From a virus, in IMG/VR virus record IMGVR_UViG_3300045988_103014, positions 141,780 to 194,171 of that record: 52,392 bases of DNA, one strand, 5' to 3'. Position numbers and translations under genes: made by a program. Positions 30,088-46,122 of the stretch are shown piece after piece. Position 1 is the first letter of the stretch; every line of letters starts with the position of its first letter. Under the pieces are notes generated by a model. The model was not told the DNA's origin. It saw nothing but the letters and a program-made list of their open reading frames with translations, and searched no databases.

Positions 30088-30888
30088 ATGAGACCAGAGG
30101 ATATTAAAGTACCAATGATATTAAAAGATATTAAAGAATTTACTGCTCAATGGAAAGCTTGTATGAAAGACTATATTGAGCGAATGGAAAAGAAGCCTGG
30201 GCTTGCAATCATTCAAGTCGGCGACGTTGAGGCCTCAAACCGATACGTCCGCAACAAGATTAAAGACTGTGAAGAAGTTGGAATTAAAACTCAATTATTC
30301 AAATTTCCTGAAGACATTTCAGACGTGGCTTTAATCTCACAGTTAAATATGATTGAGGAGAATGATGATTTTACAGGAGTATTTATTCAACTACCCCTGC
30401 CACAACACCTGCAAGGTATTGAAAAACTAATTGACCCCGCAAAAGATGTTGATGGTTTTACTCCAGATTCTGGATATACACCTTGCACACCTCTTGGTAT
30501 AGTCAAGTATTTAGACTATTGTGGTTTTAACTTGGACGGTAAAAATGTTCTTGTTATTGGCCGCAGTGATATCGTAGGTAAGCCAATGGCTCGTCTACTA
30601 TTAGATAGAAATGCAACAGTGACAGTTGCTCATAGCCATACAAAAAATCTTGACGCATTTATTTACACAGCAGATTTAATTGTATGTGCAGTTGGAAAAG
30701 CAAACTTTTTAAGCTGTGAAACAATCTATGTACCAGTTATTGATGTTGGCATCAATTTTGATGAAAATGGTAAATTAGTTGGTGATTGTTATAAAACTGA
30801 AAATCGAGATGTTACGCCGGTTCCCGGCGGTGTTGGACTACTCACCCGCTGTGCATTGCTTCACAATTTAGTAACTGGTATTTCATAA
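30088..30888 (+). CDS. folD: bifunctional 5,10-methylene-tetrahydrofolate dehydrogenase / cyclohydrolase (FolD) homologue
   Basis: 266 aa, collinear with bacterial FolD. Conserved YVRNKxKxCEEVG (catalytic Lys region), LPLPxHL, DVDGF, PCTPxGI, VIGRSxIVGKPMAxLL, ATVTxxHSxTKNL, DVGIN and PVPGGVG segments. Confidence 0.85.
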   Translation: MRPEDIKVPMILKDIKEFTAQWKACMKDYIERMEKKPGLAIIQVGDVEASNRYVRNKIKDCEEVGIKTQLFKFPEDISDVALISQLNMIEENDDFTGVFIQLPLPQHLQGIEKLIDPAKDVDGFTPDSGYTPCTPLGIVKYLDYCGFNLDGKNVLVIGRSDIVGKPMARLLLDRNATVTVAHSHTKNLDAFIYTADLIVCAVGKANFLSCETIYVPVIDVGINFDENGKLVGDCYKTENRDVTPVPGGVGLLTRCALLHNLVTGIS

Positions 30889-33465: not shown

Positions 33466-34101
33466 ATGATTTATACCAGTTATTTCGCGCAAATGCGCAA
33501 TTTTCCCGTAAACTTCATACCAATAGCAATCTGCGGCGGCATACCAAAATGGTACAATGGTTTATGGTATAAGAAGGTCGCACCAAAGTGGGCTTTCTTT
33601 TCGCAATGGAAACAAACGCATGATGATGAATATTATGTAGAACATTTTAATAGAGAAGTATTGCAACCGCACGAGCCGCAAAGATTTTTGAACGAGATTC
33701 AGCTTTTGGTTCCAGAAGAGATTAGAGCTGGTATGGCAGAACCAGTTTGGCAAAGTAAGAATGTTCATGTCGTGTTGCTTTGCTATGAAAAGCGAGGTGA
33801 TTTCTGCCACCGACATTTAGTTAGTAAATGGGTCAACGACTGGGCGGGCAAAGACCTTATCCAGGAGTGGATTCCAGAAGCAGTGGAAGAAAGGGTTATC
33901 ACTGAAGATGAGTATCAGAAAGCAAAACAGTCCTTTGCCAATGGCGGCGAAGATGGCACAATTGAGCAAAGCGAACGAGATACGGAAATACCAGAAGACA
34001 GTGCAAGCACAGATTGCGGCGGTCACCAAGTCGATTCTCACAGCGACGAAACTGGGGGAGTTTTCGACGGGAGCATTGGATTTGTTGCCGGAGACAATTA
34101 A
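33466..34101 (+). CDS. DUF488 family protein with acidic C-terminal extension
   Basis: MIYTSYFAQMRNFP...PIAICGGIPKWYNG...VAPK...VVLLCYEKRGDFCHRHLVSKWV matches the DUF488 pattern (IYTSYFA ... LLCYEK...CHRRLVAEWL). The C-terminal ~85 aa are low-complexity and overlapped by a +1-frame ORF. Confidence 0.65.
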   Translation: MIYTSYFAQMRNFPVNFIPIAICGGIPKWYNGLWYKKVAPKWAFFSQWKQTHDDEYYVEHFNREVLQPHEPQRFLNEIQLLVPEEIRAGMAEPVWQSKNVHVVLLCYEKRGDFCHRHLVSKWVNDWAGKDLIQEWIPEAVEERVITEDEYQKAKQSFANGGEDGTIEQSERDTEIPEDSASTDCGGHQVDSHSDETGGVFDGSIGFVAGDN

Positions 34102-34201
34102 ACATTTAGAAGCACATGGGTATACTGTGAGTGAAAGAAATAAAGGTGCTGGTGATTACGAGATTAGTTGGCGTGAACAATATAAGGTTAATCCATCGTA
34201 A
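33908..34201 (+). CDS. overlapping +1-frame ORF (97 aa); helix-rich, uncertain
   Basis: Protein-like sequence (…LPETIKHLEAHGYTVSERNKGAGDYEISWREQYKVNPS) that extends 100 nt beyond the DUF488 ORF. No convincing RBS. Confidence 0.25.
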   Translation: MSIRKQNSPLPMAAKMAQLSKANEIRKYQKTVQAQIAAVTKSILTATKLGEFSTGALDLLPETIKHLEAHGYTVSERNKGAGDYEISWREQYKVNPS

Positions 34202-34588
34202 TCCGAAATCGAAATACGACTTGGTGGGAATTTTGCCCAGGTCATAATGATTTTCATTTTGAAAAAAATTTTTTTCCCGAAATACTACCCCCTAACAACC
34301 AGGACAATAGCTTTCGGAGTCAGCTGATAAAAATACTGTAAGTACGGCACATACACAGAGCCTTGGCGGCGCGTTGTCGATTGCGATGCGCCGTGTTTAT
34401 CAATAGAAAGGCACTACAACAATTTTGTGCGCAACACTAACACACAACACAAGCACAAAGCTTTCCTAAAAGTCTTTGTGCAATTTGCACAAACACACAC
34501 AACAATCTTTGTACATTATTACTATAGACAACACACAAGAGCTATGGTATACTTTAATTACAGTAAAGGAAAGAGAGAGGTAACAAAG

Positions 34589-34831
34589 ATGATTAAGATA
34601 GAATGTTATGAAGCAAAGACAGCACAGTGTGGTAGCGACTACTTCAATGGTGGTAGAGGTTGCGCTATGGAGTACAAGGTAGAGCACTTCTACACAGAAG
34701 AGGAAGCACAGAGGGCTTGTGCTACAGAGAGAGCAAAGGTTGCTAAAGAGATGGCTTGGTGTGATTGGTGGGTAAAGAAGTACATCACTGATGAGCACTA
34801 CACAGTAGCAAGGGTAGTAGTTACAGTGTAG
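34589..34831 (+). CDS. hypothetical small protein (80 aa)
   Basis: GAGAGAGG 8 nt upstream of the ATG; own promoter (TAGACA-17-TATACT at ~34525-34553); flanked by CA-rich tracts. Confidence 0.5.
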   Translation: MIKIECYEAKTAQCGSDYFNGGRGCAMEYKVEHFYTEEEAQRACATERAKVAKEMAWCDWWVKKYITDEHYTVARVVVTV

Positions 34832-34857
34832 GGTAAAAGGCTTAGGCACAAAGCCTA

Positions 34858-34960
34858 AGCACACACAACAACAAACACACAACACTAACAATACATACAA
34901 CAACAAAGACACACACAACACAAAGAGATAGTCAAACACACACATCAACAATACACAAAG
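34858..34960 (+). repeat. CA-only low-complexity tract (~100 nt of A and C)
   Basis: ACACACAACAACAAACACACAACACTAACAATACATACAACAACAAAGACACACACAACACAAAG... after hairpin GGCTTAGGC-ACAAA-GCCTAAGC. Similar shorter tracts at 34431-34460, 34489-34540 and 35285-35310. Confidence 0.6.
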
Positions 34961-34990
34961 ACTTATTGTTGTAATGTTATAACAAAGGTA

Positions 34991-35019
34991 TTGACAAGGT
35001 CTTCACAGTGTGTTATAAT
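34991..35019 (+). promoter_or_regulatory. promoter for 35057 gene
   Basis: TTGACA-17-TATAAT after a CA-rich tract. Confidence 0.5.
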
Positions 35020-35056
35020 AAGTATGTATTAAGAGAAAGGAAGAGAGGGATTAACA

Positions 35057-35284
35057 ATGTACAAGACAGAGGTAGCAACAAAGAAGATGTATGGTTATGT
35101 GCATTTGTCTATGGAGAACACACCTTCTAATGCTGTAGAGTTAGCAGCAGCGTGGGGGTTGTATAGTAGAAGAAGATGGCGAGAGACTTATTGGATAAAA
35201 GGTGACGACATAACCTTTAGGTTTAAGAGAAGCACCTTCAAGGAATGGTTAGAGATTGTGAAGAGTGTCACAGAGGACAAGTAA
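35057..35284 (+). CDS. hypothetical small protein (75 aa)
   Basis: Own promoter at 34991-35019 (TTGACA-17-TATAAT); RBS AAGAGAGGG. Confidence 0.5.
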   Translation: MYKTEVATKKMYGYVHLSMENTPSNAVELAAAWGLYSRRRWRETYWIKGDDITFRFKRSTFKEWLEIVKSVTEDK

Positions 35285-35465
35285 TACACACAGCATCATG
35301 ATACACACAAGGTATGTCATGGTGCTGTTTTTGTCGTGGACGAGCCTAGTTGGCGTAGGGAGGGAGGCACGCAGAAAAGCTTGCAAAGAGTTGTACAATA
35401 AAAGGCTTGACAAACTTCCTATAAATGTGTTATAATAAACACAGTAAGAAAGGAAGTGTTAAGTA

Positions 35466-35630
35466 ATGATAGAAGTACAAAGAAAAGGTTACTATGTTAT
35501 ACAAGAGAGAAAGACACACTATGTTATTACAACAGTTGAAGGAACAGTGTTTGAGAGAACAGTTACACAGACACAGTTAAGAGCAATAATGAAAGAGATA
35601 AAAATTCGTAGTGTAAAAATTAAGAAATAA
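35466..35630 (+). CDS. hypothetical small protein (54 aa)
   Basis: Own promoter at ~35407-35436; RBS AAAGGAAG; absent from the >=60-aa ORF track. Confidence 0.35.
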   Translation: MIEVQRKGYYVIQERKTHYVITTVEGTVFERTVTQTQLRAIMKEIKIRSVKIKK

Positions 35631-35634
35631 ACTA

Positions 35635-35663
35635 TTGACAAATTGTAAAAAAAATGGTATTAT
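35635..35663 (+). promoter_or_regulatory. promoter for 35705 gene
   Basis: TTGACA-17-TGgTATTAT. Confidence 0.5.
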
Positions 35664-35704
35664 AATTATAGAAAGAGAAAAGAAATTTAAGTGAGGTGCT
35701 TGCC

Positions 35705-36010
35705 ATGATGAAAGAATACCAAGTAACATTACTCGACAAGGAAGGTCACTACAAGCCTGTTAGCACCATTGTAAGGATGGAAGAGACAACAGACAAAAAA
35801 GCGATTCTAAGAGAAGGTCAAAGAAAGATAATGATAAAACGTTATTGGACAATGAGTGACTTGAAGCGCTACGGATACACCACAGCAAAGGTACGAGAGT
35901 ACGACAAGGAGAAGATAGCCCAGGAGAATGCGGCGAGATACGAGGCGATTAAGGAAGCCAAGTACGCAAGTGGAGAATGGAAGCGTCCAAAAGGTAAGAA
36001 GGGAGAGTAA
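35705..36010 (+). CDS. hypothetical basic protein (101 aa)
   Basis: Track ORF 35696..36010 begins at GTG; ATG 35705 lies 8 nt after AGTGAGG. Own promoter at 35635-35663. Confidence 0.5.
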   Translation: MMKEYQVTLLDKEGHYKPVSTIVRMEETTDKKAILREGQRKIMIKRYWTMSDLKRYGYTTAKVREYDKEKIAQENAARYEAIKEAKYASGEWKRPKGKKGE

Positions 36011-36069
36011 TCTCCCTTTGAAAAAATCCATTCGCACGCGCGCCGGCGACTGTGGCGCGCGTTATTTTC

Positions 36070-36151
36070 AGCTATTGGCAGTCTGCACAAAAATCTCCGG
36101 CGAATTTTGTGCAAAATTACCTGTTGACATTATCCCGAAATGGTGCTATAA
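36070..36151 (+). promoter_or_regulatory. operator-promoter module 1 (drives Pnk-like kinase gene)
   Basis: TGCACAAA (36084) - 14 nt - TTTTGTGCA (36105), then TTGACA 36124, spacer with ATCCCGAAAT, TATAAT 36146. Confidence 0.55.
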
Positions 36152-36183
36152 TAATTATAGTAAATGAGAGAGAGGTAATGACT

Positions 36184-36615
36184 ATGAGTACAATGTTCGT
36201 AACAATCGGAATGCCTGGATGTGGTAAGAGCACTTGGGCACAGACTAAAAACGCAAGAGTGATTTCATCTGACGCAATTCGCGAAGAGATGTTCGGAGAT
36301 GAAGCAATTCAGGGCGACCCTCGCAAGGTATTCGCAGAGGTTTACAAGAGACTTGCACAGGCTCTCATTGATGATGTGGATGTAATCTTTGACGCAACCA
36401 ACCTCGACTACAAGAGAGCAAAAGCAATCGAAATGTGCTACGAAATGGATTGCGAATGTGTTGCCGTTTACTTTGATGTAGACGCACAGACTTGCATTGA
36501 GAGACAGAACATGCGTTCTCGCAAAGTTCCTGCGTCAGTTATTCGCAGAATGTCTCATCAGTTAGTTGTTCCTTACCTCGAAGAGGGTTGGACACGAATT
36601 GAAAAAGTTTCGTAA
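36184..36615 (+). CDS. polynucleotide 5'-kinase (T4 Pnk kinase-domain homologue, P-loop NTPase)
   Basis: MSTMFVTIGMPGCGKSTWA... (Walker A), DATNLDYKR and VPASVIRRM segments align with the T4 Pnk kinase domain (LTIGCPGSGKSTWA ... ISDTNLNPERR ... VPIDVLRSM). The second ATG, 8 nt after GAGAGG, is the start. Confidence 0.8.
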   Translation: MSTMFVTIGMPGCGKSTWAQTKNARVISSDAIREEMFGDEAIQGDPRKVFAEVYKRLAQALIDDVDVIFDATNLDYKRAKAIEMCYEMDCECVAVYFDVDAQTCIERQNMRSRKVPASVIRRMSHQLVVPYLEEGWTRIEKVS

Positions 36616-36622
36616 AAGGGGG

Positions 36623-36651
36623 TTGACAAACACCCCTTTCGGTGCTATAAT
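36623..36651 (+). promoter_or_regulatory. hairpin-embedded promoter for 36684 gene
   Basis: TTGACA lies in the loop of GGGGG...CCCC; 17-nt spacer; TATAAT. Positions were confirmed by the TTG-start ORF in the track. Confidence 0.6.
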
Positions 36652-36683
36652 TAACTTATCAAATGAAAGAGAGGAAATGAAAA

Positions 36684-37022
36684 ATGTTTACAATAATTGC
36701 TTTAATAATCGCAATGATAATGAATGGAGTACCAACAGAGAACCTCAATGAAGTCAAGGTGTACAGTGACACAATGTGCGTTGTTGATGTAAACTACGCA
36801 GAGGACATTGTAACAATCGCAGACTTTAATGGATTTGAATTTCAGTTCGAGGGTTGTGAGGATTGGCTTGAGGGGGACCTTTGCTCTGTGACAATGTGCG
36901 ACAATGGAACAGAAAAAATCTTTGATGATGTAATCCTTGGCACAAGATACAGTGGTTGGGTTGAACAATGGGGTTTTGACATCGAAAGCAATGAGTATTT
37001 ATACTATTTTGATTTTGATTAA
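36684..37022 (+). CDS. hypothetical protein with N-terminal hydrophobic segment (112 aa)
   Basis: MFTIIALIIAMIMNG... signal/TM-like N-terminus; own hairpin-embedded promoter at 36623-36651. Confidence 0.45.
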   Translation: MFTIIALIIAMIMNGVPTENLNEVKVYSDTMCVVDVNYAEDIVTIADFNGFEFQFEGCEDWLEGDLCSVTMCDNGTEKIFDDVILGTRYSGWVEQWGFDIESNEYLYYFDFD

Positions 37023-37040
37023 AAAATTCAAAAAAAGGGG

Positions 37041-37069
37041 TTGACAAGTTCAACCCCATCTGTTATAAT
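37041..37069 (+). promoter_or_regulatory. hairpin-embedded promoter for 2H phosphoesterase gene
   Basis: GGGGTTGACAAGTTCAACCCC (8-bp stem) - TATAAT. Confidence 0.55.
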
Positions 37070-37099
37070 TAAATCATCAAAGAGAGAGAGGTAGATAAA

Positions 37100-37474
37100 A
37101 TGATTTACACCGCATTATTTATTAACGAAGAAGATAGAAGAACATCAAGACTTGATAAGACAATCGAGTTTCAGCACATCACACATCAGTTCAGACCAAA
37201 GACAGTAGATGAACGCTTATTCGGTCAGCAAGCAACTCTCAAGGTTGTTGGCTATGGTATCAACGAAGAGAATGAGGGCTACCTTGTAGAAATCGTTGAG
37301 GCTTCCGAGGAATTGAGAGAGGCTTTTGCAAGTGTTGAAGTACCTCACATCACAATCGGCATTTCCAACAGTGGCAAGGCTGTCAATACAAGATACCTTG
37401 AGTTTGAGGAAATTGAGCCTTTTGAAATCGTGGCAACTTACGGAGGTTTCTGCGGCGACCACGTAAAATTCTAA
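37100..37474 (+). CDS. 2H phosphoesterase superfamily protein (LigT / cyclic phosphodiesterase / Acb1-like), compact 124 aa
   Basis: Two H-x-T-x motifs (FQHITHQF near residue 26; VPHITIGIS near residue 82). N-terminal MIYTALFI resembles the LigT beta1 strand (RLFIAI). A VVGYGINEENEGYLVEIVEASEELREAF stretch separates the two motifs as in 2H enzymes. Confidence 0.5.
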   Translation: MIYTALFINEEDRRTSRLDKTIEFQHITHQFRPKTVDERLFGQQATLKVVGYGINEENEGYLVEIVEASEELREAFASVEVPHITIGISNSGKAVNTRYLEFEEIEPFEIVATYGGFCGDHVKF

Positions 37475-37493
37475 AAAAAGTTTCAAAAAGGGG

Positions 37494-37522
37494 TTGACAA
37501 ATGCCCCTTTTGGAGCTATAAT
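37494..37522 (+). promoter_or_regulatory. hairpin-embedded promoter for 37557 gene
   Basis: AAAAGGGGTTGACAAATGCCCCTTTT; 17-nt spacer; TATAAT. Confidence 0.55.
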
Positions 37523-37556
37523 AATTATAGAAAGAAACGAAAGAGAGGTAATTACA

Positions 37557-37736
37557 ATGAACGAAATGAGAGAGAACTTACTTGATAGAATGATTAGAAT
37601 TTACGGATTTGAACACGAGGTAGTAATCGAGTTCGCAAGAATGTGCGAGAGCGACGCATACACCGACAAAGACCTTGAGGTGCTTGTGAAGTGCCACGAG
37701 GAAAACCCAGTTGGGTTTGATGAGGACGAGGAGTAA
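37557..37736 (+). CDS. small acidic protein (59 aa)
   Basis: MNEMRENLLDRMIRIYGFEHEVVIEFARMCESDAYTDKDLEVLVKCHEENPVGFDEDEE; own promoter at 37494-37522. Confidence 0.45.
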   Translation: MNEMRENLLDRMIRIYGFEHEVVIEFARMCESDAYTDKDLEVLVKCHEENPVGFDEDEE

Positions 37737-37815
37737 TCCTTGTCCTTTTCATTTGGCGGCGCGCTTTCGGCCCTGGCGCGCCGAATTTATATTATACCAT
37801 ACCACCCGGGATTTT

Positions 37816-37910
37816 GTCAAGAGAAAATTTGCACAAATTTTTGGCGTTCAATTTCCCGAAATTTGTGCACATTTACCTATTGACAAATGGCTCAAGCTTT
37901 GCTATACTAT
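37816..37910 (+). promoter_or_regulatory. operator-promoter module 2 (drives a ~110-nt non-coding leader)
   Basis: GTCAAGAG ... TGCACAAAT (37830) - 22 nt incl. TTTCCCGAA - ATTTGTGCA (37861) ... CCTATTGACA (-35 37880) - 17 - TATACT. Confidence 0.55.
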
Positions 37911-37916
37911 AATTAC

Positions 37917-38030
37917 AGAAAGGGGAAGTGAGGCTTGACCGTTAAGCGTGTGCAGTTGGTATTTGACTTGACAAAGTCGGGTGCTGATTAGCGAGGGTTC
38001 AACGGAACCTCGAACCCTTTGAAAAAAAAT
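37917..38030 (+). ncRNA. candidate non-coding transcript from operator-promoter module 2
   Basis: No ORF or RBS for ~110 nt; ends in hairpin AGGGTTC...GAACCCT followed by an A-run and the next promoter. Confidence 0.25.
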
Positions 38031-38040
38031 AAAAAAAGTG

Positions 38041-38069
38041 TTGACAAAGGTTGTCAGCTATGCTATAAT
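38041..38069 (+). promoter_or_regulatory. promoter for 38100 gene
   Basis: TTGACA-17-TATAAT preceded by an A-tract. Confidence 0.55.
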
Positions 38070-38099
38070 TAAATCATCAAAGAGAGAGAGGTACACAAA

Positions 38100-38552
38100 A
38101 TGTATAGAATTGATAGAATGAGAAGAGATTACGAAAAGTTTACAGGTGCAGAGGGATACGCAATCGGTTTCCACATTGGCGAAGATGTTTACTGTGCAAT
38201 GCTTGACAGAATACCAAGAAGATTTACAAGAGTACAGAAAGAATGTTCTTCTTGTGGTGGTGGCTACGGACTTTACATCAATGTAAAGAATAAGAAAGCA
38301 AAAGCCGAACTGATGAAGAAAGCCGTTAAGGTTGGAACACTTGCAGACCTTGAGGGAGATTATAACAGAGGTGTAATGTTTGAAAAACTCGTTTACGAAA
38401 TGAATGGACAGACATTCAGAGGTAAAGACTCCGTAAGATTTACAGAGGGTGGCGACATTGTAATTGACGGAAAGGAAATTCAAGTCAAGTATGAACACGC
38501 AAGAATTTGTTATGATAGCACATTAAAAAAATTGAAAAAAGGGGTTGCATAA
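38100..38552 (+). CDS. hypothetical protein with CSSCGGG motif (150 aa)
   Basis: Own promoter at 38041-38069; RBS GAGAGAGAGG. Confidence 0.45.
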   Translation: MYRIDRMRRDYEKFTGAEGYAIGFHIGEDVYCAMLDRIPRRFTRVQKECSSCGGGYGLYINVKNKKAKAELMKKAVKVGTLADLEGDYNRGVMFEKLVYEMNGQTFRGKDSVRFTEGGDIVIDGKEIQVKYEHARICYDSTLKKLKKGVA

Positions 38553-38573
38553 TTGCTCCCCTTGTGCTATAAT
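38545..38573 (+). promoter_or_regulatory. hairpin-embedded promoter for 38605 gene
   Basis: GGGGTTGCATAATTGCTCCCC; TGcTATAAT. Confidence 0.5.
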
Positions 38574-38604
38574 AAGTATAGAAAATGAGAGAGAGGTAAT
38601 GATA

Positions 38605-38772
38605 ATGGCATTTGTAGAAATTTCCAAAAGAACAAAGAAAGAGCAGAAAGCCTACTACGCAAGTATGCGAAATGTGAACGGGTTCAACACCGGCACACGC
38701 ACAATGAAAACACCAAAAAATCCTACTCGTGCAATGCAGAAAGATGCTTGGCGAAAAGGTAAAGAAATTTAG
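38605..38772 (+). CDS. small basic protein (55 aa)
   Basis: MAFVEISKRTKKEQKAYYASMRNVNGFNTGTRTMKTPKNPTRAMQKDAWRKGKEI; ATG 8 nt after GAGAGG. Confidence 0.4.
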   Translation: MAFVEISKRTKKEQKAYYASMRNVNGFNTGTRTMKTPKNPTRAMQKDAWRKGKEI

Positions 38773-38781
38773 AAAAAAGTG

Positions 38782-38810
38782 TTGACAAACACCTCAAGCT
38801 GTGGTATTAT
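38782..38810 (+). promoter_or_regulatory. promoter for HAD phosphatase gene
   Basis: TTGACA-17-TGgTATTAT. Confidence 0.55.
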
Positions 38811-38837
38811 AATTATAGAAAGAGAGGTAAACAGATT

Positions 38838-39269
38838 ATGATGAAAGCAATTAACTTTGACATGGACGGAACATTAGCAAACTTCTACGGAGTAGAAAAT
38901 TGGTTGGAATACTTAATGGCAGAAGATGTAACACCTTACGAGGTAGCAAGACCACTCCTCAATCTTCAGGCACTTGCAAGAGTTCTCAACAGATTGCAGA
39001 GAGAGGGTTGGGAAATCAACATCATTTCTTGGTTAAGTAGAAACGGAAGTGATGACTACAACGCAAGAGTGACAGAAACCAAAAAGGCTTGGTTAGAAAA
39101 ACACCTTGCAAGTGTTCACTTCGACAACATCACAATAGTAAAGTACGGAACACCTAAACACACTTTAGGAAACGGAATACTTTTTGATGATGAAGAGCCA
39201 AACAGAAACGCTTGGGGCGTTGGTGCTTACGATGTGCAGAACATCATCGAAATTCTGAAAAATCTCTAA
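38838..39269 (+). CDS. HAD-family polynucleotide 3'-phosphatase (T4 Pnk phosphatase-domain homologue)
   Basis: INFDMDGTLA (HAD motif I DxDGT), ISWLSRNGS, and ILFDDEEPNRNAW (motif IV DD) are collinear with the T4 Pnk phosphatase domain (VIFDVDGTLA ... VVSGR ... LAIDDRTQVVEMW). Confidence 0.7.
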   Translation: MMKAINFDMDGTLANFYGVENWLEYLMAEDVTPYEVARPLLNLQALARVLNRLQREGWEINIISWLSRNGSDDYNARVTETKKAWLEKHLASVHFDNITIVKYGTPKHTLGNGILFDDEEPNRNAWGVGAYDVQNIIEILKNL

Positions 39270-39276
39270 AAAGGGG

Positions 39277-39305
39277 TTGACAAAACCCCTTGCAAGGGGT
39301 ATAAT
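39277..39305 (+). promoter_or_regulatory. hairpin-embedded promoter for 39326 gene
   Basis: GGGGTTGACAAAACCCC, then an alternative hairpin CCCCTTGCAAGGGG overlapping the spacer; TATAAT. Confidence 0.5.
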
Positions 39306-39325
39306 TAAACCATGAAAGAGAGGTA

Positions 39326-39517
39326 ATGAAAATGAAAACAGTTATTATTGAATACGCAACAATTAGTCCAGCAGTTCTTGCTAACAAGGTAGAGAAGGCT
39401 TTCTCTTGCTTGTGTAACTGGAAGGACATTGATGAGGACTACTTTGAGTTTACAGTCATTGGTGTTTGTGCTTGTGACATGGATGAACTTGAGGATGTGC
39501 TTGCAGAGTATGTGTAA
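39326..39517 (+). CDS. hypothetical small acidic protein (63 aa)
   Basis: Own promoter at 39277-39305; Cys-containing. Confidence 0.4.
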   Translation: MKMKTVIIEYATISPAVLANKVEKAFSCLCNWKDIDEDYFEFTVIGVCACDMDELEDVLAEYV

Positions 39518-39607
39518 ACTCTGCAAGCATTTTTTTGCCCAAGTTTGGGCGCCGCGCGCACGAACGATGCGCGCGGAATTTTCATTATACCATACCCCAC
39601 AGCTTTT

Positions 39608-39700
39608 GTCAAGAGAAAAGTTGCACAAATTTTCAATCGGTGCTATTCCCGAAATTTGTGCATTTTGCCAGTAGACAAAGCTCTGTTGGAGTGTTATAAT
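39608..39700 (+). promoter_or_regulatory. operator-promoter module 3
   Basis: GTCAAGAG ... TGCACAAAT (39622) - 22 nt incl. TTCCCGAA - ATTTGTGCA (39653), then TAGACA-17-TATAAT. Confidence 0.55.
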
Positions 39701-39731
39701 GATTATAGTAAATGAGAGAGAGGTAATGAGT

Positions 39732-39845
39732 ATGACAGTATTTTATTTATTCGATGAGTATGGAGTTTGTTGTGGCACTACTACTGACGAGGACTATGCG
39801 TCAGCGTGGGCAGATGCGAACGAGGGCTATTATTGTTGCGATTAG
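39732..39845 (+). CDS. tiny acidic Cys-rich peptide (37 aa)
   Basis: MTVFYLFDEYGVCCGTTTDEDYASAWADANEGYYCCD; ATG 8 nt after GAGAGG; operator-type promoter upstream. Confidence 0.3.
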   Translation: MTVFYLFDEYGVCCGTTTDEDYASAWADANEGYYCCD

Positions 39846-39848
39846 CCC

Positions 39849-39878
39849 TTGACATCATTCCAAAAGTGTGCTATACTA
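39849..39878 (+). promoter_or_regulatory. promoter for acidic-protein gene 39903
   Basis: TTGACA-18-TATACT. Confidence 0.5.
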
Positions 39879-39902
39879 ATAATAGAAAGAGAGGTAATTG
39901 CT

Positions 39903-40139
39903 ATGGTAGAAGTTTGGGCAATCAATAAGGTAACTGAAGAGGAACTATTCCTTGGATACTGCGACACTGAAGAGGACGCACAAGAGGACATTGACAACAA
40001 CATTGAGTGGGATGACCTCGACAATCCAGACGATTGGAGATTTGAAATCCGTCCAGCAGAGGACTATGAAGAGCCTTGCGACATTGATGATGATTGCGGC
40101 TTTGACCCTTACTGCGGTTGCTACACCTACGATTGTTAG
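39903..40139 (+). CDS. very acidic small protein (78 aa) - DNA-mimic / anti-restriction candidate
   Basis: MVEVWAINKVTEEELFLGYCDTEEDAQEDIDNNIEWDDLDNPDDWRFEIRPAEDYEEPCDIDDDCGFDPYCGCYTYDC; roughly 35% D/E; own promoter at 39849-39878. Confidence 0.45.
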   Translation: MVEVWAINKVTEEELFLGYCDTEEDAQEDIDNNIEWDDLDNPDDWRFEIRPAEDYEEPCDIDDDCGFDPYCGCYTYDC

Positions 40140-40168
40140 GTGTAGCTGAAAAAAATTTCAAAAAGGGG

Positions 40169-40198
40169 TTGACAAGTTCCCCACAGTGTGCTATACTT
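40169..40198 (+). promoter_or_regulatory. hairpin-embedded promoter for NDT-like gene
   Basis: GGGGTTGACAAGTTCCCC; TATACT. Confidence 0.5.
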
Positions 40199-40227
40199 AA
40201 TGTATCAAATGAAGAGAGGTAATGTGT

Positions 40228-40629
40228 ATGAAGATTTATTTGGCAAGTCCATTTTTTAATCAGTTAGAAAGAGCAAATGTTGTAAAGGTCGCAGAGAGAT
40301 TGCGTGCCGAGGGTCACGAGGTCTATGTTCCAATGGAACACGAGATTGAAAATGCGTGGGATTTACCTAACAATGAATGGTCACGCAGAGTATTCAAAGA
40401 CGATGTTGACGCAATTCGCAAGGCTGACAAGGTTGTTGCAATCACTTATGGAATGACTGATGACGCAGGAACTTCGTGGGAGATTGGCTTTGCTTACGGC
40501 ATTGACAAAACTGTTGAGGTTATTTCTGTAAATCAGACAACTTATTCTTTAATGGTTTATCAGAGTTGTGCAGAGGTTTCAGACCTTGACGGAAACCCAT
40601 TAAGAAAAAAAGAAATTTTACAAAGTTAG
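40228..40629 (+). CDS. nucleoside 2-deoxyribosyltransferase-fold protein (NDT / Rcl-DNPH1-like)
   Basis: MKIYLASPFF (compare IYFGAGWF) and DDAGTSWEIGFAYGIDKTV (compare EDVGLGMELGYALSQGKYV) are the two signature segments of the Nuc_deoxyrib_tr fold. Confidence 0.6.
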   Translation: MKIYLASPFFNQLERANVVKVAERLRAEGHEVYVPMEHEIENAWDLPNNEWSRRVFKDDVDAIRKADKVVAITYGMTDDAGTSWEIGFAYGIDKTVEVISVNQTTYSLMVYQSCAEVSDLDGNPLRKKEILQS

Positions 40630-40632
40630 GGG

Positions 40633-40661
40633 TTGACAAAACCCCACTAATGGGGTATAAT
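40633..40661 (+). promoter_or_regulatory. hairpin-embedded promoter for 40693 gene
   Basis: GGGGTTGACAAAACCCC plus an alternative CCCCACTAATGGGG; TATAAT. Confidence 0.5.
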
Positions 40662-40692
40662 AATTATAGAAAATGAAAGAGAGGTATTTACT

Positions 40693-40893
40693 ATGAGAAT
40701 TGATGTTGAAATGACTTGCCCATTCTGTGGGGCTGAACACAGTGTTGAGGTTAATCTTGCTGGCTTTGAGGCTTGGCAGAATGGCGAACTCATTCAGAGA
40801 GCAATGCCAGACCTCTCGGCAACTGAAAGAGAGCAGTTAATCTCTCAAATCTGCCCGAAGTGTCAGGCAGAGGTCTTTGGCGAAGATGAATAA
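40693..40893 (+). CDS. zinc-ribbon protein (CPFCG...CPKCQ)
   Basis: 66 aa with two CxxC pairs. Confidence 0.45.
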   Translation: MRIDVEMTCPFCGAEHSVEVNLAGFEAWQNGELIQRAMPDLSATEREQLISQICPKCQAEVFGEDE

Positions 40894-40921
40894 TCTTCCC
40901 AAAGATTTTTCAAAAAAAGTC

Positions 40922-40950
40922 TTGACAACCGACTGAAAACGTTGTATAAT
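40922..40950 (+). promoter_or_regulatory. promoter for 40976 gene
   Basis: TTGACA-17-TATAAT. Confidence 0.5.
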
Positions 40951-40975
40951 GATTATAGAAAGTGAGGTAAGGATT

Positions 40976-41152
40976 ATGTTGATGTTTTTATTAGGTATGT
41001 TGATAATGTATTTAATTGTTGGAGTTATCCTTGTGATAGAGGGATTTTCTTCAGATTGGCTTCAGTGGTTGTTTGGTTGGTGGTTTGTATTGCCAATTAT
41101 GTTTTGCCACTGGGTTAAGAAAAAAATTAAGAATTTTTCAAAAAAGTGTTGA
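40976..41152 (+). CDS. small membrane protein (58 aa, 2 TM)
   Basis: MLMFLLGMLIMYLIVGVILVIEGF...WWFVLPIMFCHWVKKKIK; ATG after AGTGAGGTAAGG. Confidence 0.4.
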   Translation: MLMFLLGMLIMYLIVGVILVIEGFSSDWLQWLFGWWFVLPIMFCHWVKKKIKNFSKKC

Positions 41153-41177
41153 CAAACTCTTCGGAGTATGTTAATAT
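41149..41177 (+). promoter_or_regulatory. promoter driving non-coding region 41185-41290
   Basis: TTGACA-17-TAATAT; no RBS-bearing ORF downstream. Confidence 0.4.
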
Positions 41178-41184
41178 ATAATTG

Positions 41185-41292
41185 TCAAGAGGAAGTGTTT
41201 AAAACCACTTAAAACGTATCCGTAGGGCAACAAGTAGCGAAGAATGAGAATCAGTAGCGATAGTAAAAACCCTTTCGATTTTCTCAAAAACC
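41185..41292 (+). ncRNA. candidate short non-coding transcript / leader
   Basis: Downstream of the TTGACA-17-TAATAT promoter; only a 33-codon ORF without RBS. Confidence 0.2.
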
Positions 41293-41321
41293 TCTTGACA
41301 AGCCGAAAGGCAAGTGCTATA
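41293..41321 (+). promoter_or_regulatory. promoter driving candidate ncRNA 41328-41519
   Basis: TTGACA-17-TATAAT; the transcript ends at the GNRA-loop terminator. Confidence 0.45.
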
Positions 41322-41327
41322 ATAAGT

Positions 41328-41519
41328 ACATAAGGTTGAGGTAGTTAATGTGTGAGCCCAAGGGAGCAAGAACCGAAACGCTACCGACAAAGACAACCTA
41401 GCGCACGGGCACTCAGGTGTGCGCTATACAAGTGTGAACCAAAACCACAGTTCCGTTTGCAAGTTTGTGGACTAGCCTAGAGTGTAATGGAACAAGAGCC
41501 GAAAGGCTCTATTTTTTTT
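41328..41519 (+). ncRNA. candidate ~190-nt non-coding RNA
   Basis: Consensus promoter at 41293-41321, no RBS-bearing ORF, internal stem GCGCACGGGCACTCAGGTGTGCGC, and termination at the GNRA-loop hairpin + T8. Confidence 0.35.
41495..41519 (+). terminator. terminator ending a non-coding transcript
   Basis: AGAGCC-GAAA-GGCTCT (GNRA loop) followed by T8. Confidence 0.6.
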
Positions 41520-41564
41520 GTCCATTTGAGCCTGCCGCGCCCGATGGTTGCGGCCGGTATTTTT

Positions 41565-41648
41565 GTCAATAGGTAGTCTGCACAAATTTTGCCACCAAAC
41601 TTTGTGCATTTTGTACAGTTGACATTTTCCCGTATCTATGGTATTATA
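41565..41648 (+). promoter_or_regulatory. operator-promoter module 4 (drives DEDDh exonuclease 1)
   Basis: GTCAATAGG ... TGCACAAAT (41579) - 13 - TTTGTGCA (41601), then TTGACA (41619, confirmed by track) - TTTTCCCGTATCTATGG - TATTAT. Confidence 0.6.
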
Positions 41649-41679
41649 ATTATAACAAATGAGAGAGAGGTAATGAATT

Positions 41680-42342
41680 ATGAACAAGATTATGTATTGT
41701 ACTTTAGACACAGAAACAGTTGGTGGCGCAAGCAATCCAACAGGCACATACAATTATGGTGGAAAAATCCACGACAGAAACGGAAATGTTTTCGCAAGTT
41801 TTTCGCTTTTGGTTTCAAGTCACTATGAGGACATCAAGAACGATGACTATGCAAAAAAGAATTTTCCACTCTATGAGAGATACATCAACGAGGGAAAAGT
41901 CACAGTAGTTCCAACAGAGGAAATGGCACTTGACATTATCCGTCAGTTGTGCAGAGCCTACAATGTAAAGTATTTAATGGCTTACAATTCAGGCTTTGAC
42001 TTTGTAAAAACTAATTGCGCCGAGTTGCTTGACGAGTTCGAGTTCATTGACATTTACTTAATGGCATTACAGACAATTACTCACATCAAGAAGTATGCGA
42101 AGTTCTGCCGAGAGAATGGCTTTGTTTCAAGAAGTGGTAAGACTTGCGCAACTTCTGCCGAGAGTATGTTTGCATACCTCACAGACAATGCAGACTACAA
42201 AGAAGAACACACTGCCTTTGAAGATGCTTGCATTGAAATGGAAATCTTCCTTGCTTGCTTACGCACTCACAAGAAATTCACAAAGAATGTTCATCAGTGG
42301 GATTGCCGAGAGGGAAAAATTTTTCCAAAATGGGTTGACTAA
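41680..42342 (+). CDS. DEDDh 3'-5' exonuclease (DnaQ/oligoribonuclease-like), paralogue 1
   Basis: Exo I LDTETVG, Exo II YNSGFDF, Exo III HTAFEDACIEMEIF. Start is the second ATG, 10 nt after GAGAGG. Confidence 0.65.
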   Translation: MNKIMYCTLDTETVGGASNPTGTYNYGGKIHDRNGNVFASFSLLVSSHYEDIKNDDYAKKNFPLYERYINEGKVTVVPTEEMALDIIRQLCRAYNVKYLMAYNSGFDFVKTNCAELLDEFEFIDIYLMALQTITHIKKYAKFCRENGFVSRSGKTCATSAESMFAYLTDNADYKEEHTAFEDACIEMEIFLACLRTHKKFTKNVHQWDCREGKIFPKWVD

Positions 42343-42363
42343 TCGGTCAACCCATGGTATAAT
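42335..42363 (+). promoter_or_regulatory. promoter for 42388 gene (-35 inside hairpin GGGTTGAC..GTCAACCC)
   Basis: TTGACT-17-TGgTATAAT. Confidence 0.5.
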
Positions 42364-42387
42364 AATTATAGAAAGTGAGGGAAGCCA

Positions 42388-42624
42388 ATGCAAAAAGAAA
42401 TGAAAGAAGTTAAGTGTCCCAAGTGCGGAGCCGAGGACGTGGAGTTCATTGACCAAAACCACCACGAATTGATGTGGGAAAGTCATACGGGTTATGAGGA
42501 CGGAATTTACGATTGCCGACATTGTCGCATTCGGTTTGGTATTTGGACAGATTTTGAAATCAAAATCACAAATGTAAAAGTCGATTGGGTCGAAGAATAC
42601 GAAGAGGAAGAGGACGAGGAATAA
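42388..42624 (+). CDS. zinc-ribbon protein with acidic tail
   Basis: CPKCG...CRHCR plus an EEYEEEEDEE C-terminus. Confidence 0.45.
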   Translation: MQKEMKEVKCPKCGAEDVEFIDQNHHELMWESHTGYEDGIYDCRHCRIRFGIWTDFEIKITNVKVDWVEEYEEEEDEE

Positions 42625-42700
42625 AATTCTCGTCCTTTTTCAGCGCCGCGCCGGCGAACGTCCGGCGCGGTGTTTATTATACCACATCGGCTCAGCATTT

Positions 42701-42795
42701 GTCAAGAGGAAAATTGCACAAATTTTCAAATAATTTTTTTTCCCAATTTGTACAATCTGCCTATTGATTTTTATTAAAAAATTTGGTATTATAAT
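42701..42795 (+). promoter_or_regulatory. operator-promoter module 5 (degenerate right arm)
   Basis: GTCAAGAGG ... TGCACAAAT (42715) ... TTTTTCCCAATTTGTACA ... CCTATTGATT (-35) - 17 - TGgTATTAT. Confidence 0.45.
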
Positions 42796-42864
42796 AGTGT
42801 CAAAAGGAAAGGGAATAAAAAAACCGAGAGGAAAAAAAATTCCAAAAAAAAATGAAAAACCTAT

Positions 42865-42892
42865 TGACAAAATAAAAAAAATTTGTTATAAT
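42865..42892 (+). promoter_or_regulatory. middle promoter of triple stack upstream of wHTH A1
   Basis: TTGACA-16-TATAAT in A-tract DNA. Confidence 0.5.
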
Positions 42893-42961
42893 AATTATAC
42901 AAGGTAAGGAAAGAATTAAAAAGCAAAAGCCAATCGGCAATAAAAAAAATAAAAAAAGTGC

Positions 42962-42990
42962 TTGACATTCTTCAAAACCTATGTTATAAT
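42962..42990 (+). promoter_or_regulatory. proximal promoter of wHTH A1
   Basis: TTGACA-17-TATAAT. Confidence 0.55.
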
Positions 42991-43033
42991 AACAATGTAA
43001 ACAAAGTAAACCAACTCAAATCAAGAAAGGTAA

Positions 43034-43438
43034 ATGGTGGTAATTATGGAAAAGATGACTAATGTTAAGGCAATCGAGTATGTTCTTGCAAACGCAACTC
43101 TCCCTACTGATGTAAAGGAGAAGTTAGAGAAGATGAAGGCACAGTTTGTGAAGAAGAACTCTGCCGACAGAAAGCCTACTGCAAATCAGGTTGAGAACGC
43201 AGAGTTTAAGGTGGCAATCCTTGACTACCTTGCAACTGTTGAGTCTGCGACTATCTCCGACTTAATGAAGTCCGTTCCTGCTCTTGCAGAACTCTCAAAT
43301 CAGAGAGTATCGGCAATCGTTAGACAGTTAAAGGACTCTGGCGAGGTTGTTAGAGAGGAAATCAAGAGAAAGGCTTACTTCTCTCTTGCCGAGGACTCTG
43401 CCGACCTTGACGAGTCCGAGGACTCTGACGAGGAGTAA
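43034..43438 (+). CDS. winged-helix DNA-binding protein, paralogue A1 of a triplicated family
   Basis: TISDLMKSVPALAELSNQRVSAIVRQLKDSGEVVREEIKRKAYF reads as helix-turn-helix plus wing; acidic C-tail. About 70% identical to 44536..44928 and 48749..49132. The true start may be the ATG at 43046. Confidence 0.55.
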   Translation: MVVIMEKMTNVKAIEYVLANATLPTDVKEKLEKMKAQFVKKNSADRKPTANQVENAEFKVAILDYLATVESATISDLMKSVPALAELSNQRVSAIVRQLKDSGEVVREEIKRKAYFSLAEDSADLDESEDSDEE

Positions 43439-43467
43439 AAAAAATCGTCAAGGGGTGTAAAAACCCC

Positions 43468-43496
43468 TTGACAACTTCTCTAAATCGTGCTATACT
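43468..43496 (+). promoter_or_regulatory. promoter for paralogue B1 (its -35 follows a terminator-like hairpin)
   Basis: AAGGGGTGTAAAAACCCCTTGACA; TATACT. Confidence 0.5.
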
Positions 43497-43521
43497 ATAA
43501 TCAAGAAAGGGGGAAAGCCCA

Positions 43522-43893
43522 ATGACAAACGAAGAAAGAATTGAACAGTTGATGAAAAGTCTTGATTGTAGTCGAGAAGAAGCAATCCAAGTAATCGCAG
43601 ACGATGAAGCCATTGACAAGGGCGAAAAGTTGTTTGAACTCTCTGCCGAACAGAAAAAGGCGAGCAAAGACGCACGAAACACAGGTGCGAAAAAGCCGAC
43701 CGTTTACAAGTTCGATACTTCCAAGAGAAAGAAAGCCGAGAATGTGGGCAAACGCACATTGATTGATACAATCAAAGCAAGCCTTGATGAAATCGGTGTC
43801 GAGGGAATGGAAGTCACGAACCCCGAACGAGAGTTGAACTTCTCCGTTGATGGTGTCAAGTACAAAATCGTGTTGAGTTGCCCGAGAAAGTAG
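43522..43893 (+). CDS. hypothetical protein, paralogue B1 (pairs with 49230..49640)
   Basis: Shares KKPTVYKFDT and the C-terminal beta-rich region with paralogue B2. Confidence 0.45.
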   Translation: MTNEERIEQLMKSLDCSREEAIQVIADDEAIDKGEKLFELSAEQKKASKDARNTGAKKPTVYKFDTSKRKKAENVGKRTLIDTIKASLDEIGVEGMEVTNPERELNFSVDGVKYKIVLSCPRK

Positions 43894-43900
43894 GGCAACT

Positions 43901-44002
43901 TGCACAAATAAAATTCTCTGTTTTGCACAAAGTTCCAGCCGGAATTTTGTGCAATTTTTTTTATCCAAAAGGCTTGACAAAAGCGGCGACCTGTGCTATA
44001 AT
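43901..44002 (+). promoter_or_regulatory. operator-promoter module 6 (two left half-sites)
   Basis: TGCACAAAT (43901) + TGCACAAAG (43924) - 12 nt - TTTTGTGCA (43945), then TTGACA-16-TATAAT. The transcript immediately enters a GC hairpin. Confidence 0.5.
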
Positions 44003-44062
44003 GGCGCGCCGCTGTCGGCAGCAGCGGCGTGAATTTCCAGTATACCACACTCTCAGCAATTT

Positions 44063-44156
44063 GTCAAGCAAAAACTCCAGGGCAATCTGCACAAATCTTT
44101 TTCCCGAAATTTGTGCAACATTGCCTATTGCATTTTGGGGGTGGGTGTGCTATACT
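44063..44156 (+). promoter_or_regulatory. operator-promoter module 7
   Basis: GTCAAG ... TGCACAAAT (44088) - CTTTTTCCCGAA - ATTTGTGCA (44109) ... CCTATTGCAT (-35) - 17 - TATACT. Confidence 0.5.
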
Positions 44157-44324
44157 TATAATTGTCAAGGGGAGGTGGCAACGTCCGATACGAACACTGA
44201 AAAAAAATTGACAAAACCCCTTGACAAACCTCTCTCAATAGTGTATAATGATTATACAAGGTAGGGATAACAAATGAGATTGAAACCCACTTAAAATAAG
44301 TCAAAAAAAACTATTGACAAATAA

Positions 44325-44353
44325 ATAAAAAAGTGTTATAATAAATATATAAA
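44325..44353 (+). promoter_or_regulatory. distal promoter upstream of wHTH A2
   Basis: TTGACA-17-TATAAT. Confidence 0.5.
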
Positions 44354-44465
44354 GAAAAGGAAAGCGTCTTAAAAGTCGGTGTGGAAAACTCCTATGGCAT
44401 TAAAACTCGCGAGGTGTTAAGAGAAAACCCATTGCAGACAATTTCAAAAAAAATTAAAAAAAACA

Positions 44466-44494
44466 CTTGACAATTAAATAAAGAAATGTTATAA
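44466..44494 (+). promoter_or_regulatory. proximal promoter of wHTH A2
   Basis: TTGACA-17-TATAAT. Confidence 0.55.
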
Positions 44495-44535
44495 TAATAA
44501 TGTAAACAAAACAAATCACATTCAAAGAAAGGTAA

Positions 44536-44928
44536 ATGGTGGTAAACATGGAAAAGATGACAAACGTAAAGGCAATTGATTTCGTACTTGGCAACTGTGA
44601 GGTTCCTGCTGATGTAAAGGAAAAGTTGGAGAAGATGAAGGCTCAGTTCATCAAGAAGTCTAGTGCGGAGCGTAAGCCTACCGCAAATCAGACTGAGAAC
44701 GCAAGCCTCAAGGTGGCTATCCTCGACGCAATGGAAGAGGGTAAGGGTTACACCATCACCGACTTGATGAAGGTTGTGCCTGAACTTGCAGACCTCTCTA
44801 ATCAGAGGGTAAGTGCAATCGTTCGTCAGATGAAGGACGAGGGTACTGTAACTCGTGAGGAGATTAAGCGTAAGGCTTACTTCACAAAGGCAACTGACGA
44901 GGTTGCCGACCTTGAGGACGAGGAGTAA
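44536..44928 (+). CDS. winged-helix DNA-binding protein, paralogue A2
   Basis: Same architecture as A1; preceded by two tandem consensus promoters in AT-rich DNA. Confidence 0.55.
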   Translation: MVVNMEKMTNVKAIDFVLGNCEVPADVKEKLEKMKAQFIKKSSAERKPTANQTENASLKVAILDAMEEGKGYTITDLMKVVPELADLSNQRVSAIVRQMKDEGTVTREEIKRKAYFTKATDEVADLEDEE

Positions 44929-45026
44929 TCCTCGCCCCCTTGGGGGTAACTGAATAACGGATAAACTAGGGCGGTTTGAGCAAAGGCTTGAACCGCCCGC
45001 TTACGTTCGACGCGGGCGGTGTTTTC

Positions 45027-45109
45027 GTCAATAGGCAGTTTCAACAAATTTTCGGCGTAAAATTTGTGCAATTTTACCTATTGCAATTTTCCCGTAATCG
45101 TGGTATTAT
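45027..45109 (+). promoter_or_regulatory. operator-promoter module 8
   Basis: GTCAATAGGCAG - TTCAACAAAT (degenerate left) - 13 - TTTGTGCA (45063) ... CCTATTGCAA (-35) - TTTTCCCGTAATCGTGG - TATTAT. Confidence 0.5.
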
Positions 45110-46097: not shown

Positions 46098-46122
46098 AAT
46101 TATAGAAAGTGAGGAAAGAACT

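Follow-up and report, generated by a model that had tools for sequence, protein, structure and literature searches.

Within a 52,392-nucleotide (nt) stretch of viral DNA (positions 141,780 to 194,171 of IMG/VR record IMGVR_UViG_3300045988_103014, hereafter the window), a short gene at 37100..37474 on the plus strand very probably encodes a genuine, catalytically competent and minimal 2H phosphoesterase of the CNPase/cyclic phosphodiesterase (CPD) type, which we call mini-2H. In the predicted structure, the 2H core β-sheet and both HxT motifs are kept and all flanking helices but one are lost; the protein is a stripped-down form within the 2H superfamily, with two new associations, one with Pnkp-type polynucleotide kinases and the other with CorA-like membrane proteins. 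The structure and the kinase linkage favour a role as a cyclic phosphodiesterase in RNA end healing, and we give about an even chance to the specific proposal that mini-2H is a minimal 2',3'-cyclic phosphodiesterase paired with the neighbouring polynucleotide kinase in that process; within this proposal, we infer the substrate, the product, the partnership with the kinase in the phage and the existence of a ligase.

The open reading frame (ORF) runs from an ATG start to a TAA stop (coordinates including the stop codon) and encodes 124 amino acids (aa). An earlier note, made from the DNA letters, had described an ORF of this size with two HxT motifs at shorter than usual spacing, and both parts of that description held; the note mentioned neither the neighbouring polynucleotide kinase nor the large family to which the gene belongs. 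The first motif (H26-I27-T28, 37175..37183, plus strand) is followed by an aromatic residue five positions after its histidine (F31, 37190-37192, plus strand), and the second (H83-I84-T85, 37346..37354, plus strand) is preceded by a conserved proline, P82. The stretches HITH from residue 26 and HITI from residue 83 correspond to nt 37175-37186 and 37346-37357, respectively. Among family members, position 29 is variable (F/L/T/V/H), so the conserved motif is HxT, and HxTH was rejected as a conserved motif. The two histidines are 57 residues apart, compared with 76 in the canonical LigT-like 2H domain of one family protein (P0148) and 79 in CNPase (H230 to H309, PMC4643303).

An exhaustive HMMER scan of 1.84 billion cluster representatives, all against all, recovered 410 homologous representatives at E<=1e-3 and 194 at E<=1e-10, while a word-indexed search had returned 18 relatives. 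Most of the 410 are 120–150 aa long, with typical members at 130–145 aa, and they derive from gut phages, Clostridia (Lachnospiraceae, Oscillospiraceae, Ruminococcus and other gut Clostridia) and Saccharibacteria. Both HxT motifs are kept across the 165 family representatives in which conservation was scored: H26 is present in 161, T28 in 161, H83 in all 165, T85 in 164 and P82 in 154 (three of the four representatives without H26 are gaps in truncated sequences), and position 31 is Y or F in 161. Also conserved are Y52, the N58-E59-G60 turn, T97 and F102.

Despite the size of this family, its relationship to other proteins was not visible to sequence searches. The mini-2H protein matched nothing in Pfam, PHROGs, PADLOC, NCBIfam or, by phmmer, the PDB sequences, and none of the curated 2H sequence models (PF02834, PF13563, PF23474, TIGR02258 and others) matched it; PF05881, which we take to be the accession relevant to CNPase, was among the Pfam models with no match to it. 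A Pfam search of the 18 homologues gave noise only, and these had no match in NCBIfam, PHROGs or PADLOC either. Searches of the PDB by hmmsearch with family profiles of 18 and 120 sequences retrieved no 2H chain, and among 50,697 deposited phage genomes tblastn gave no match to the protein. When the family was aligned by hhalign with the canonical LigT-like 2H domain of P0148, only the HxT motif was aligned, with a probability of 8.7%. With no match to any 2H sequence model or profile, this is therefore an orphan family by sequence, and on that basis mini-2H lies outside the Acb1, LigT and other curated 2H families. Membership of the LigT family was rejected on the missing hidden Markov model (HMM) match and the hhalign result, and membership of the Acb1 family because PF23474 did not match mini-2H, although it detects the canonical 2H domain of P0148, and because the structure is not closest to Acb1.

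The AlphaFold2 (AF2) model, built on the 18-sequence alignment, was confident (mean predicted local distance difference test score 92.7, predicted template modelling score 0.85) and consists of seven strands and a single helix at residues 70–76 (DSSP assignment), with the HxT motifs beginning the central β-strands 26–31 and 83–88, in keeping with the bilobed α+β fold of the superfamily, in which both motifs face one cleft. The best 17 structural matches all belong to the 2H superfamily, so that the check by structure modelling suggested in the earlier note supports the 2H fold, and the catalytic domain of CNPase can be overlaid with 111 of the 124 residues at 2.3 Å. The likeness is greatest for CNPase and the CPD proteins when compared with the LigT, AKAP18, Usb1 and Acb1 branches: the best matches among viral models in Foldseek were Trl1-like ligase-kinase-CPD proteins of giant viruses (approximately 770 aa, E 1.3e-4), whereas models of Acb1 reached only E 0.16–0.22. 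F31 matches the register of H230...F235 in CNPase, a correspondence by register only; F235 of CNPase stacks on the substrate base and is required for activity (PMC4643303). Among the structural matches, cellular 2H proteins have 168–216 aa and viral chains 140–148 residues. The members of the family that are linked to CorA-like proteins keep a short extra helix after strand 1, which the clade of the window protein has deleted; given this deletion and the typical family length, the window protein is therefore the small extreme of a minimal family.

So small a domain could be suspected of being an inactive or non-enzymatic protein, such as a decoy or sponge that binds nucleotides or RNA ends, or even a chance ORF, and the model lends this some weight, since, of the four helices that usually line the 2H cleft, three are absent, and the helix at 70–76 is the only one present. 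However, the near-absolute conservation of the four catalytic residues over 165 diverse representatives argues for catalysis, and we consider this explanation scarcely credible. A chance ORF is excluded by the 410 homologues, the consensus promoter and the Shine-Dalgarno sequence.

The reading of mini-2H as an RNA end-healing enzyme draws, besides its structure, on its association with a kinase. A stand-alone Pnkp-type polynucleotide 5'-kinase of 143 aa is encoded at 36184..36615 on the plus strand (PF13671, AAA_33, 8.6e-23), 485 bp upstream of mini-2H with one 112-aa ORF between them. Its best PDB match is the kinase domain of Clostridium thermocellum Pnkp (4gp7, 3.5e-10), T4 Pnk (1ly1) also matches, and its best NCBIfam model is TIGR04075 bacter_Pnkp (7e-16). 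Elsewhere in the family, the two domains are joined in one chain, in the order kinase-2H in P0073 and P0166-P0175 (11 clusters, 300–319 aa) and also in P0022, and in the reverse order in P0118 and P0126. At the jumbo-phage locus L015, the kinase gene overlaps the start of the 2H gene, at a second such locus (L014) it lies 2 kb away, and at the locus of a 53% identical relative (L046) it is found 1.4 kb upstream of the 2H gene. Apart from the fusions, the fused kinase is closest to kinase-HD proteins; the nearest cultured-phage homologues of the window kinase are kinase-HD proteins too, 324 aa long and from the Bacillus Tsamsaviruses Izhevsk and Thrax4, and the genes for these overlap an upstream gene for an Rnl1-type RNA ligase. 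Because the homologues of the kinase are kinase-HD proteins, mini-2H occupies, by a domain-swap argument, the slot of the 3'-end healing module. CNPase and Trl1 are kinase-CPD proteins, and tRNA healing enzymes are the presumed ancestors of CNPase (PMC5434554). On the simplest reading, mini-2H would be the 3'-end healing partner of this type of kinase.

Most likely, mini-2H would open, by metal-independent hydrolysis, a 2',3'-cyclic phosphate carried by a nucleotide or by the 3' end of an RNA. If its chemistry resembles that of CNPase, H83 would activate the water and H26 would protonate the leaving oxygen, while F31 would stack on the substrate base. Working early in infection with the Pnkp-type 5'-OH kinase, which is encoded by a separate gene, the protein would form one half of a split kinase-CPD pair, and the pair would make RNAs (such as tRNAs) ready for re-ligation after cleavage by host defence ribonucleases. 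Since a 2H enzyme leaves a 2'- or 3'-phosphate, not a clean 3'-OH, the pathway would need a further step or a special ligase.

Several observations weigh against RNA end healing. The 2H assignment itself comes from the predicted structure and the motifs, and no sequence method ties the family to the 2H families. The phosphate left behind would require either a Trl1-type ligase together with Tpt1, or a phosphatase; no RNA ligase was found in the window, which covers only about a quarter of the 194-kb phage genome, or in the fetched family loci, when the window ORFs (including those at 27–47 kb) were searched with Pfam, and the window and all loci by tblastn with the Rnl1 and the HD domain of Izhevsk. 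Neither of the chromosomal kinase-2H fusions P0174 and P0175 has a ligase neighbour, and the window contains no tRNA genes. The linkage to the kinase is also incomplete: a kinase lies within 2.5 kb of the 2H gene in only about four of 11 distinct phage loci, representing two lineages, and the locus of a 76% identical relative (L045) has none within its 9.9-kb contig. In the window, the kinase and mini-2H are separate transcription units with an unrelated ORF between them. In most bacterial members of the family, the coupling is to a CorA-like membrane protein instead of a kinase, which suggests a small-molecule substrate, at any rate in that bacterial clade. Finally, a nucleotidase and a deoxyribosyltransferase are encoded just downstream of mini-2H and are syntenic in relatives, an arrangement that also fits nucleotide salvage.

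For salvage, mini-2H would hydrolyse free 2',3'-cyclic nucleoside monophosphates set free as host RNA is degraded and so feed the neighbouring nucleotidase and deoxyribosyltransferase to supply the phage with nucleotides, and the AAA_33 protein would be a nucleoside or nucleotide kinase. The same early region does hold an NT5C/HAD-like nucleotidase (38838-39269), a nucleoside 2-deoxyribosyltransferase (40222-40629), FolD (30088-30888) and DUF488-N3a (33466-34101); the order kinase, 2H, NT5C, deoxyribosyltransferase is kept in L046, and L045 retains NT5C. Free 2',3'-cyclic nucleotides are moreover good substrates of CNPase, the best structural match (PMC4643303). The kinase, however, weighs against salvage: its best matches are the clostridial and T4 polynucleotide kinases and TIGR04075 as given above, its other matches of the AAA_33 type are L-seryl-tRNA(Sec) kinase (PSTK), with no nucleoside or nucleotide kinase matched, and its phage homologues sit with RNA ligases. 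Salvage also leaves the CorA-like association unexplained, and the separate promoter of each gene and the fluid gene order count against it, so that we regard it as very unlikely.

A homologue of DUF488 was also observed near mini-2H at the jumbo-phage locus L014, where, as at L015, the conserved neighbours had no Pfam match. The 150-aa ORF at 38100-38552, two genes 3' of mini-2H, resembles by eye the 167-aa product of L045:3451-3954, the gene directly upstream of mini-2H in L045, the common stretch being ...GGD(I/L)(V/I)IDGK(E/Q)IQVK(Y/F)...; if this likeness holds, the gene order would have been shuffled between relatives. The 112-aa ORF between the kinase and mini-2H genes (36684..37022, plus strand) has a hydrophobic N-terminus and no Pfam match. 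It was found only in near-identical contigs and is absent between kinase and 2H in L015, and it is probably not part of the kinase/2H system.

The second association of the family was seen in bacteria. At 10 of 14 bacterial loci (gut Clostridia), mini-2H stands directly after, or is fused to, a CorA-like protein of 390–480 aa, which matches the PADLOC 'CorA-like' CRISPR-accessory models PDLC01043 and PDLC01174 (E 1e-11 to 5e-16) and has no match in Pfam (including Pfam CorA) or NCBIfam. An AF2 model of this partner has an N-terminal α/β domain, a long helical stalk and two C-terminal transmembrane helices, and more than 215 close homologues were counted for the CorA-like family by itself. Fusions of the CorA-like protein with mini-2H account for nine of the 150 best representatives (P0044, P0056, P0062, P0095, P0097, P0132, P0079, P0156 and P0165) and occur in both domain orders, with P0132 and P0079 reversed; the split pair at L009 (6674-8420) matches the N-terminal part of the fused P0044 along its length, with 48% identity. 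The flanks of these modules differ between loci, as expected for a mobile two-gene cassette, and at L009:6674-8420 and L021-L030 the surroundings were varied and mostly housekeeping in nature. The CorA effectors associated with CRISPR are activated by S-adenosylmethionine-AMP (SAM-AMP) and are almost always paired or fused with NrN, DEDD or a SAM-AMP lyase, and a SAM-AMP lyase encoded by a phage is a proposed anti-CRISPR (PMC11229360, PMC12255297).

These findings suggest a different role, in which mini-2H is a bacterial companion phosphodiesterase that was captured by phages and destroys a nucleotide second messenger that would otherwise activate a membrane or other effector; Acb1, AcrIII-1 and the phage SAM-AMP lyase AcrIIIB4 would be its counterparts. 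The frequency of the CorA-like partner at the bacterial loci, its PADLOC match and its fusion in both orders are all in keeping with such a role, as is the precedent that phages have captured the degrading enzymes that accompany CorA (PMC11229360, PMC12255297), and the gene lies in an early, promoter-dense region of small genes, typical of functions in host takeover and anti-defence. On the other hand, no type III genes occur within 6–10 kb of the 10 CorA-like/2H loci or in L040-L042: among 63 neighbour proteins of the 10 loci there was no Cas10, Csm or Cmr, and L040-L042 had no cas10 or other type III gene. The neighbours were mostly housekeeping proteins, with a CARF-HEPN protein at one locus only, and no signal synthase was identified. 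Neither the window gene nor the phage loci have a CorA-like neighbour. In a neighbour-joining tree of 186 domains, built without support values, the phage-rich part is separate from the CorA-rich part, a split in the sequences that is suggestive and that sets the phage proteins apart from the CorA-linked clade; the structure is, in addition, much closer to CNPase and Trl1-CPD than to Acb1. Degradation of a defence signal is thus a possibility that we hold only tentatively, and the more specific version, in which mini-2H is a hitherto unrecognised class of companion phosphodiesterases that joins CorA-like effectors of gut Clostridia in a free-standing two-gene or fused module, acting on a nucleotide signal outside CRISPR, and the phage copies were captured to shut the signalling down, appears unlikely. 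If that version were true, mini-2H would represent a new family of anti-defence enzymes with the smallest known 2H fold. RNA end healing remains the best reading.

Other members of the family combine mini-2H with further domains. Residues 335-426 of the 631-aa protein P0148 form a canonical LigT/Acb1-like 2H domain and residues 500-629 a mini-2H domain, and its N-terminus is in common with P0142; since both are present in one chain, the LigT-like and mini-2H domains are not interchangeable copies, which suggests that the two 2H types do different jobs. Further fusions are found in P0081 (354 aa), P0129, P0072 and P0039, where mini-2H is joined in one case to a nucleotidyltransferase-like region with a weak match to ANT(4')-II and in the others to three unannotated domains. 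The homologue P0017, at L012:387-695, lies in the context of a conjugative element (a TraG/type IV secretion system coupling protein and ClpP), with a cREC_REC domain protein approximately 5.5 kb away; this domain has been linked to cyclic-phosphate processing by Aravind's group (PMC7824862). In Saccharibacteria, the gene upstream of mini-2H encodes a Cthe_2159 β-helix protein and looks unrelated.

The mini-2H gene has its own expression signals. A sigma-70-type promoter with a TG extended -10 matches the consensus at 12 of 12 positions (TTGACA-17-TATAAT, 37041..37069, plus strand), and its -35 hexamer lies inside an 8-bp hairpin at 37037..37057, which is terminator-like on both strands, the upstream A-run being a T-run on the minus strand; a 46-nt segment around this hairpin folds with -13.5 kcal/mol. 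The 5' leader (37070..37099, plus strand), as read from the sequence, carries the Shine-Dalgarno sequence GAGAGG at 37086-37091, 8 nt before the ATG. It belongs to repeat family D15, in common with 38008-38093 and 40136-40221, and is nearly identical to the leader of the gene at 38100, so that the hairpin-embedded promoter and the standard cassette leader ascribed to this gene in the earlier note were both recovered. Directly after the stop codon, a further hairpin (37479..37517, plus strand, -18.7 kcal/mol) holds the -35 box of the next gene, whose promoter is at 37494-37522, and is likely to serve as terminator of the mini-2H gene as well as part of the next promoter.

This organisation recurs throughout the region. 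The window contains 34 occurrences of TTGACA-N15-19-TATAAT, against 0.08 expected, and the cassette of promoter and leader makes up repeat families of more than 20 copies. In 34000-52392, more than 30 near-identical units of consensus promoter, 'aattatagaaag' and GAGAGG leader were observed (families D1-D8 and D15); nearly all of the small early genes thus form transcription units of their own. A strong hairpin covers the -35 box in about a quarter of the consensus promoters of the window, and these hairpins probably double as the terminator of the upstream gene. A second class of intergenic repeats (families D9-D12 and D16-D18) combines paired TTGTGCA(A/C)AAT-like half-sites with a GC-rich hairpin and is found at 36047-36181, 37752-37888, 39545-39677, 41542-41676, 42643-42795, 44000-44136, 45004-45138, 46642-46776, 48290-48508 and 49779-49866. 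At three of these repeats there is a perfect consensus promoter on the minus strand (37791-37820, 39584-39612 and 42676-42705), and the repeats of this class may be operator sites or genes for small antisense RNAs. Three paralogous genes of approximately 130 aa (43034-43438, 44536-44928 and 48749-49132) have conserved leaders and 72–81% DNA identity (families D6 and D14), with no Pfam match for the two that were scanned.

The window makes up about a quarter of a 194-kb phage genome. Its terminase large subunit is approximately 48% identical to those of Enterococcus and Geobacillus phages of about 140 kb, the SPbeta-like markers YonG and YunG are present, and an identical mini-2H protein is found on a 193.9-kb gut-metagenome contig; together, these likenesses mark the window as the early-gene region of a large phage whose host is a gut Firmicute. 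Within the structural block, a single 3221-aa ORF lies on the minus strand at 2582-12247.

The family thus marks a gap in annotation, since at least 410 cluster representatives with a predicted 2H fold are invisible to Pfam, PHROGs, NCBIfam and PADLOC. If functional, the 2H fold would shrink to roughly 105–125 residues, which would help in enzyme design and offer a compact cyclic-phosphodiesterase reagent. To our knowledge, this is the first set of prokaryotic or phage proteins with a 2H domain that is closest to CNPase and fused to Pnkp-type kinases. The family could be the prokaryotic or phage source of the kinase-CPD module found in Trl1 and CNPase, and it provides a concrete candidate for where the eukaryotic healing module came from. 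That mini-2H is repeatedly coupled to CRISPR-type CorA-like proteins away from CRISPR loci is also new and offers a testable signalling or defence module.

When compared with known systems, mini-2H is most similar to CNPase (PDB 2xmi), which likewise has two HxT motifs with an aromatic residue five positions after the first histidine and is linked to a P-loop domain resembling polynucleotide kinase, as the mini-2H family is to its kinase. The CNPase domain is, however, a vertebrate protein of approximately 216 aa with 17% identity to the 124-aa protein of a prokaryotic virus, which has one helix left and, in this phage, a kinase encoded by a separate gene. The CPD of Trl1-type tRNA ligases (fungi, plants and giant viruses) also forms a pair with a kinase and, as in the mini-2H family, fused proteins exist, and the putative product of mini-2H would be 2'-PO4/3'-OH; however, no ligase domain or ligase gene was found near mini-2H, which is also much smaller. 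The bacterial and phage healing enzymes Runella HD-Pnk, C. thermocellum Pnkp, T4 Pnkp and Tsamsavirus kinase-HD contain kinases of the same clade as the kinase of mini-2H, and they join a 5'-kinase with a 2',3'-phosphoesterase as the proposed pair would; in place of their HD, metallophosphoesterase or HAD module, the pair would have mini-2H, whose fold is different and which would be independent of metal. Acb1, at 140–160 aa, is another small 2H enzyme encoded by phages, and mini-2H, like it, is plausibly the product of an early anti-defence gene, yet the partners of mini-2H (a kinase and a CorA-like protein) are different and Acb1 is a weaker structural match than CNPase. LigT and ThpR (PF02834, PF13563 and TIGR02258) have the 2H fold and two HxT motifs, and metal-independent CPD chemistry would be expected of both them and mini-2H, which is about 50 residues shorter and without an HMM match to them. 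The bacterial mini-2H genes, finally, resemble those for NrN and the SAM-AMP lyase in being adjacent or fused to genes for CorA-like membrane proteins, whereas NrN, DEDD and the lyase are unrelated in fold and the mini-2H modules stand apart from cas genes.

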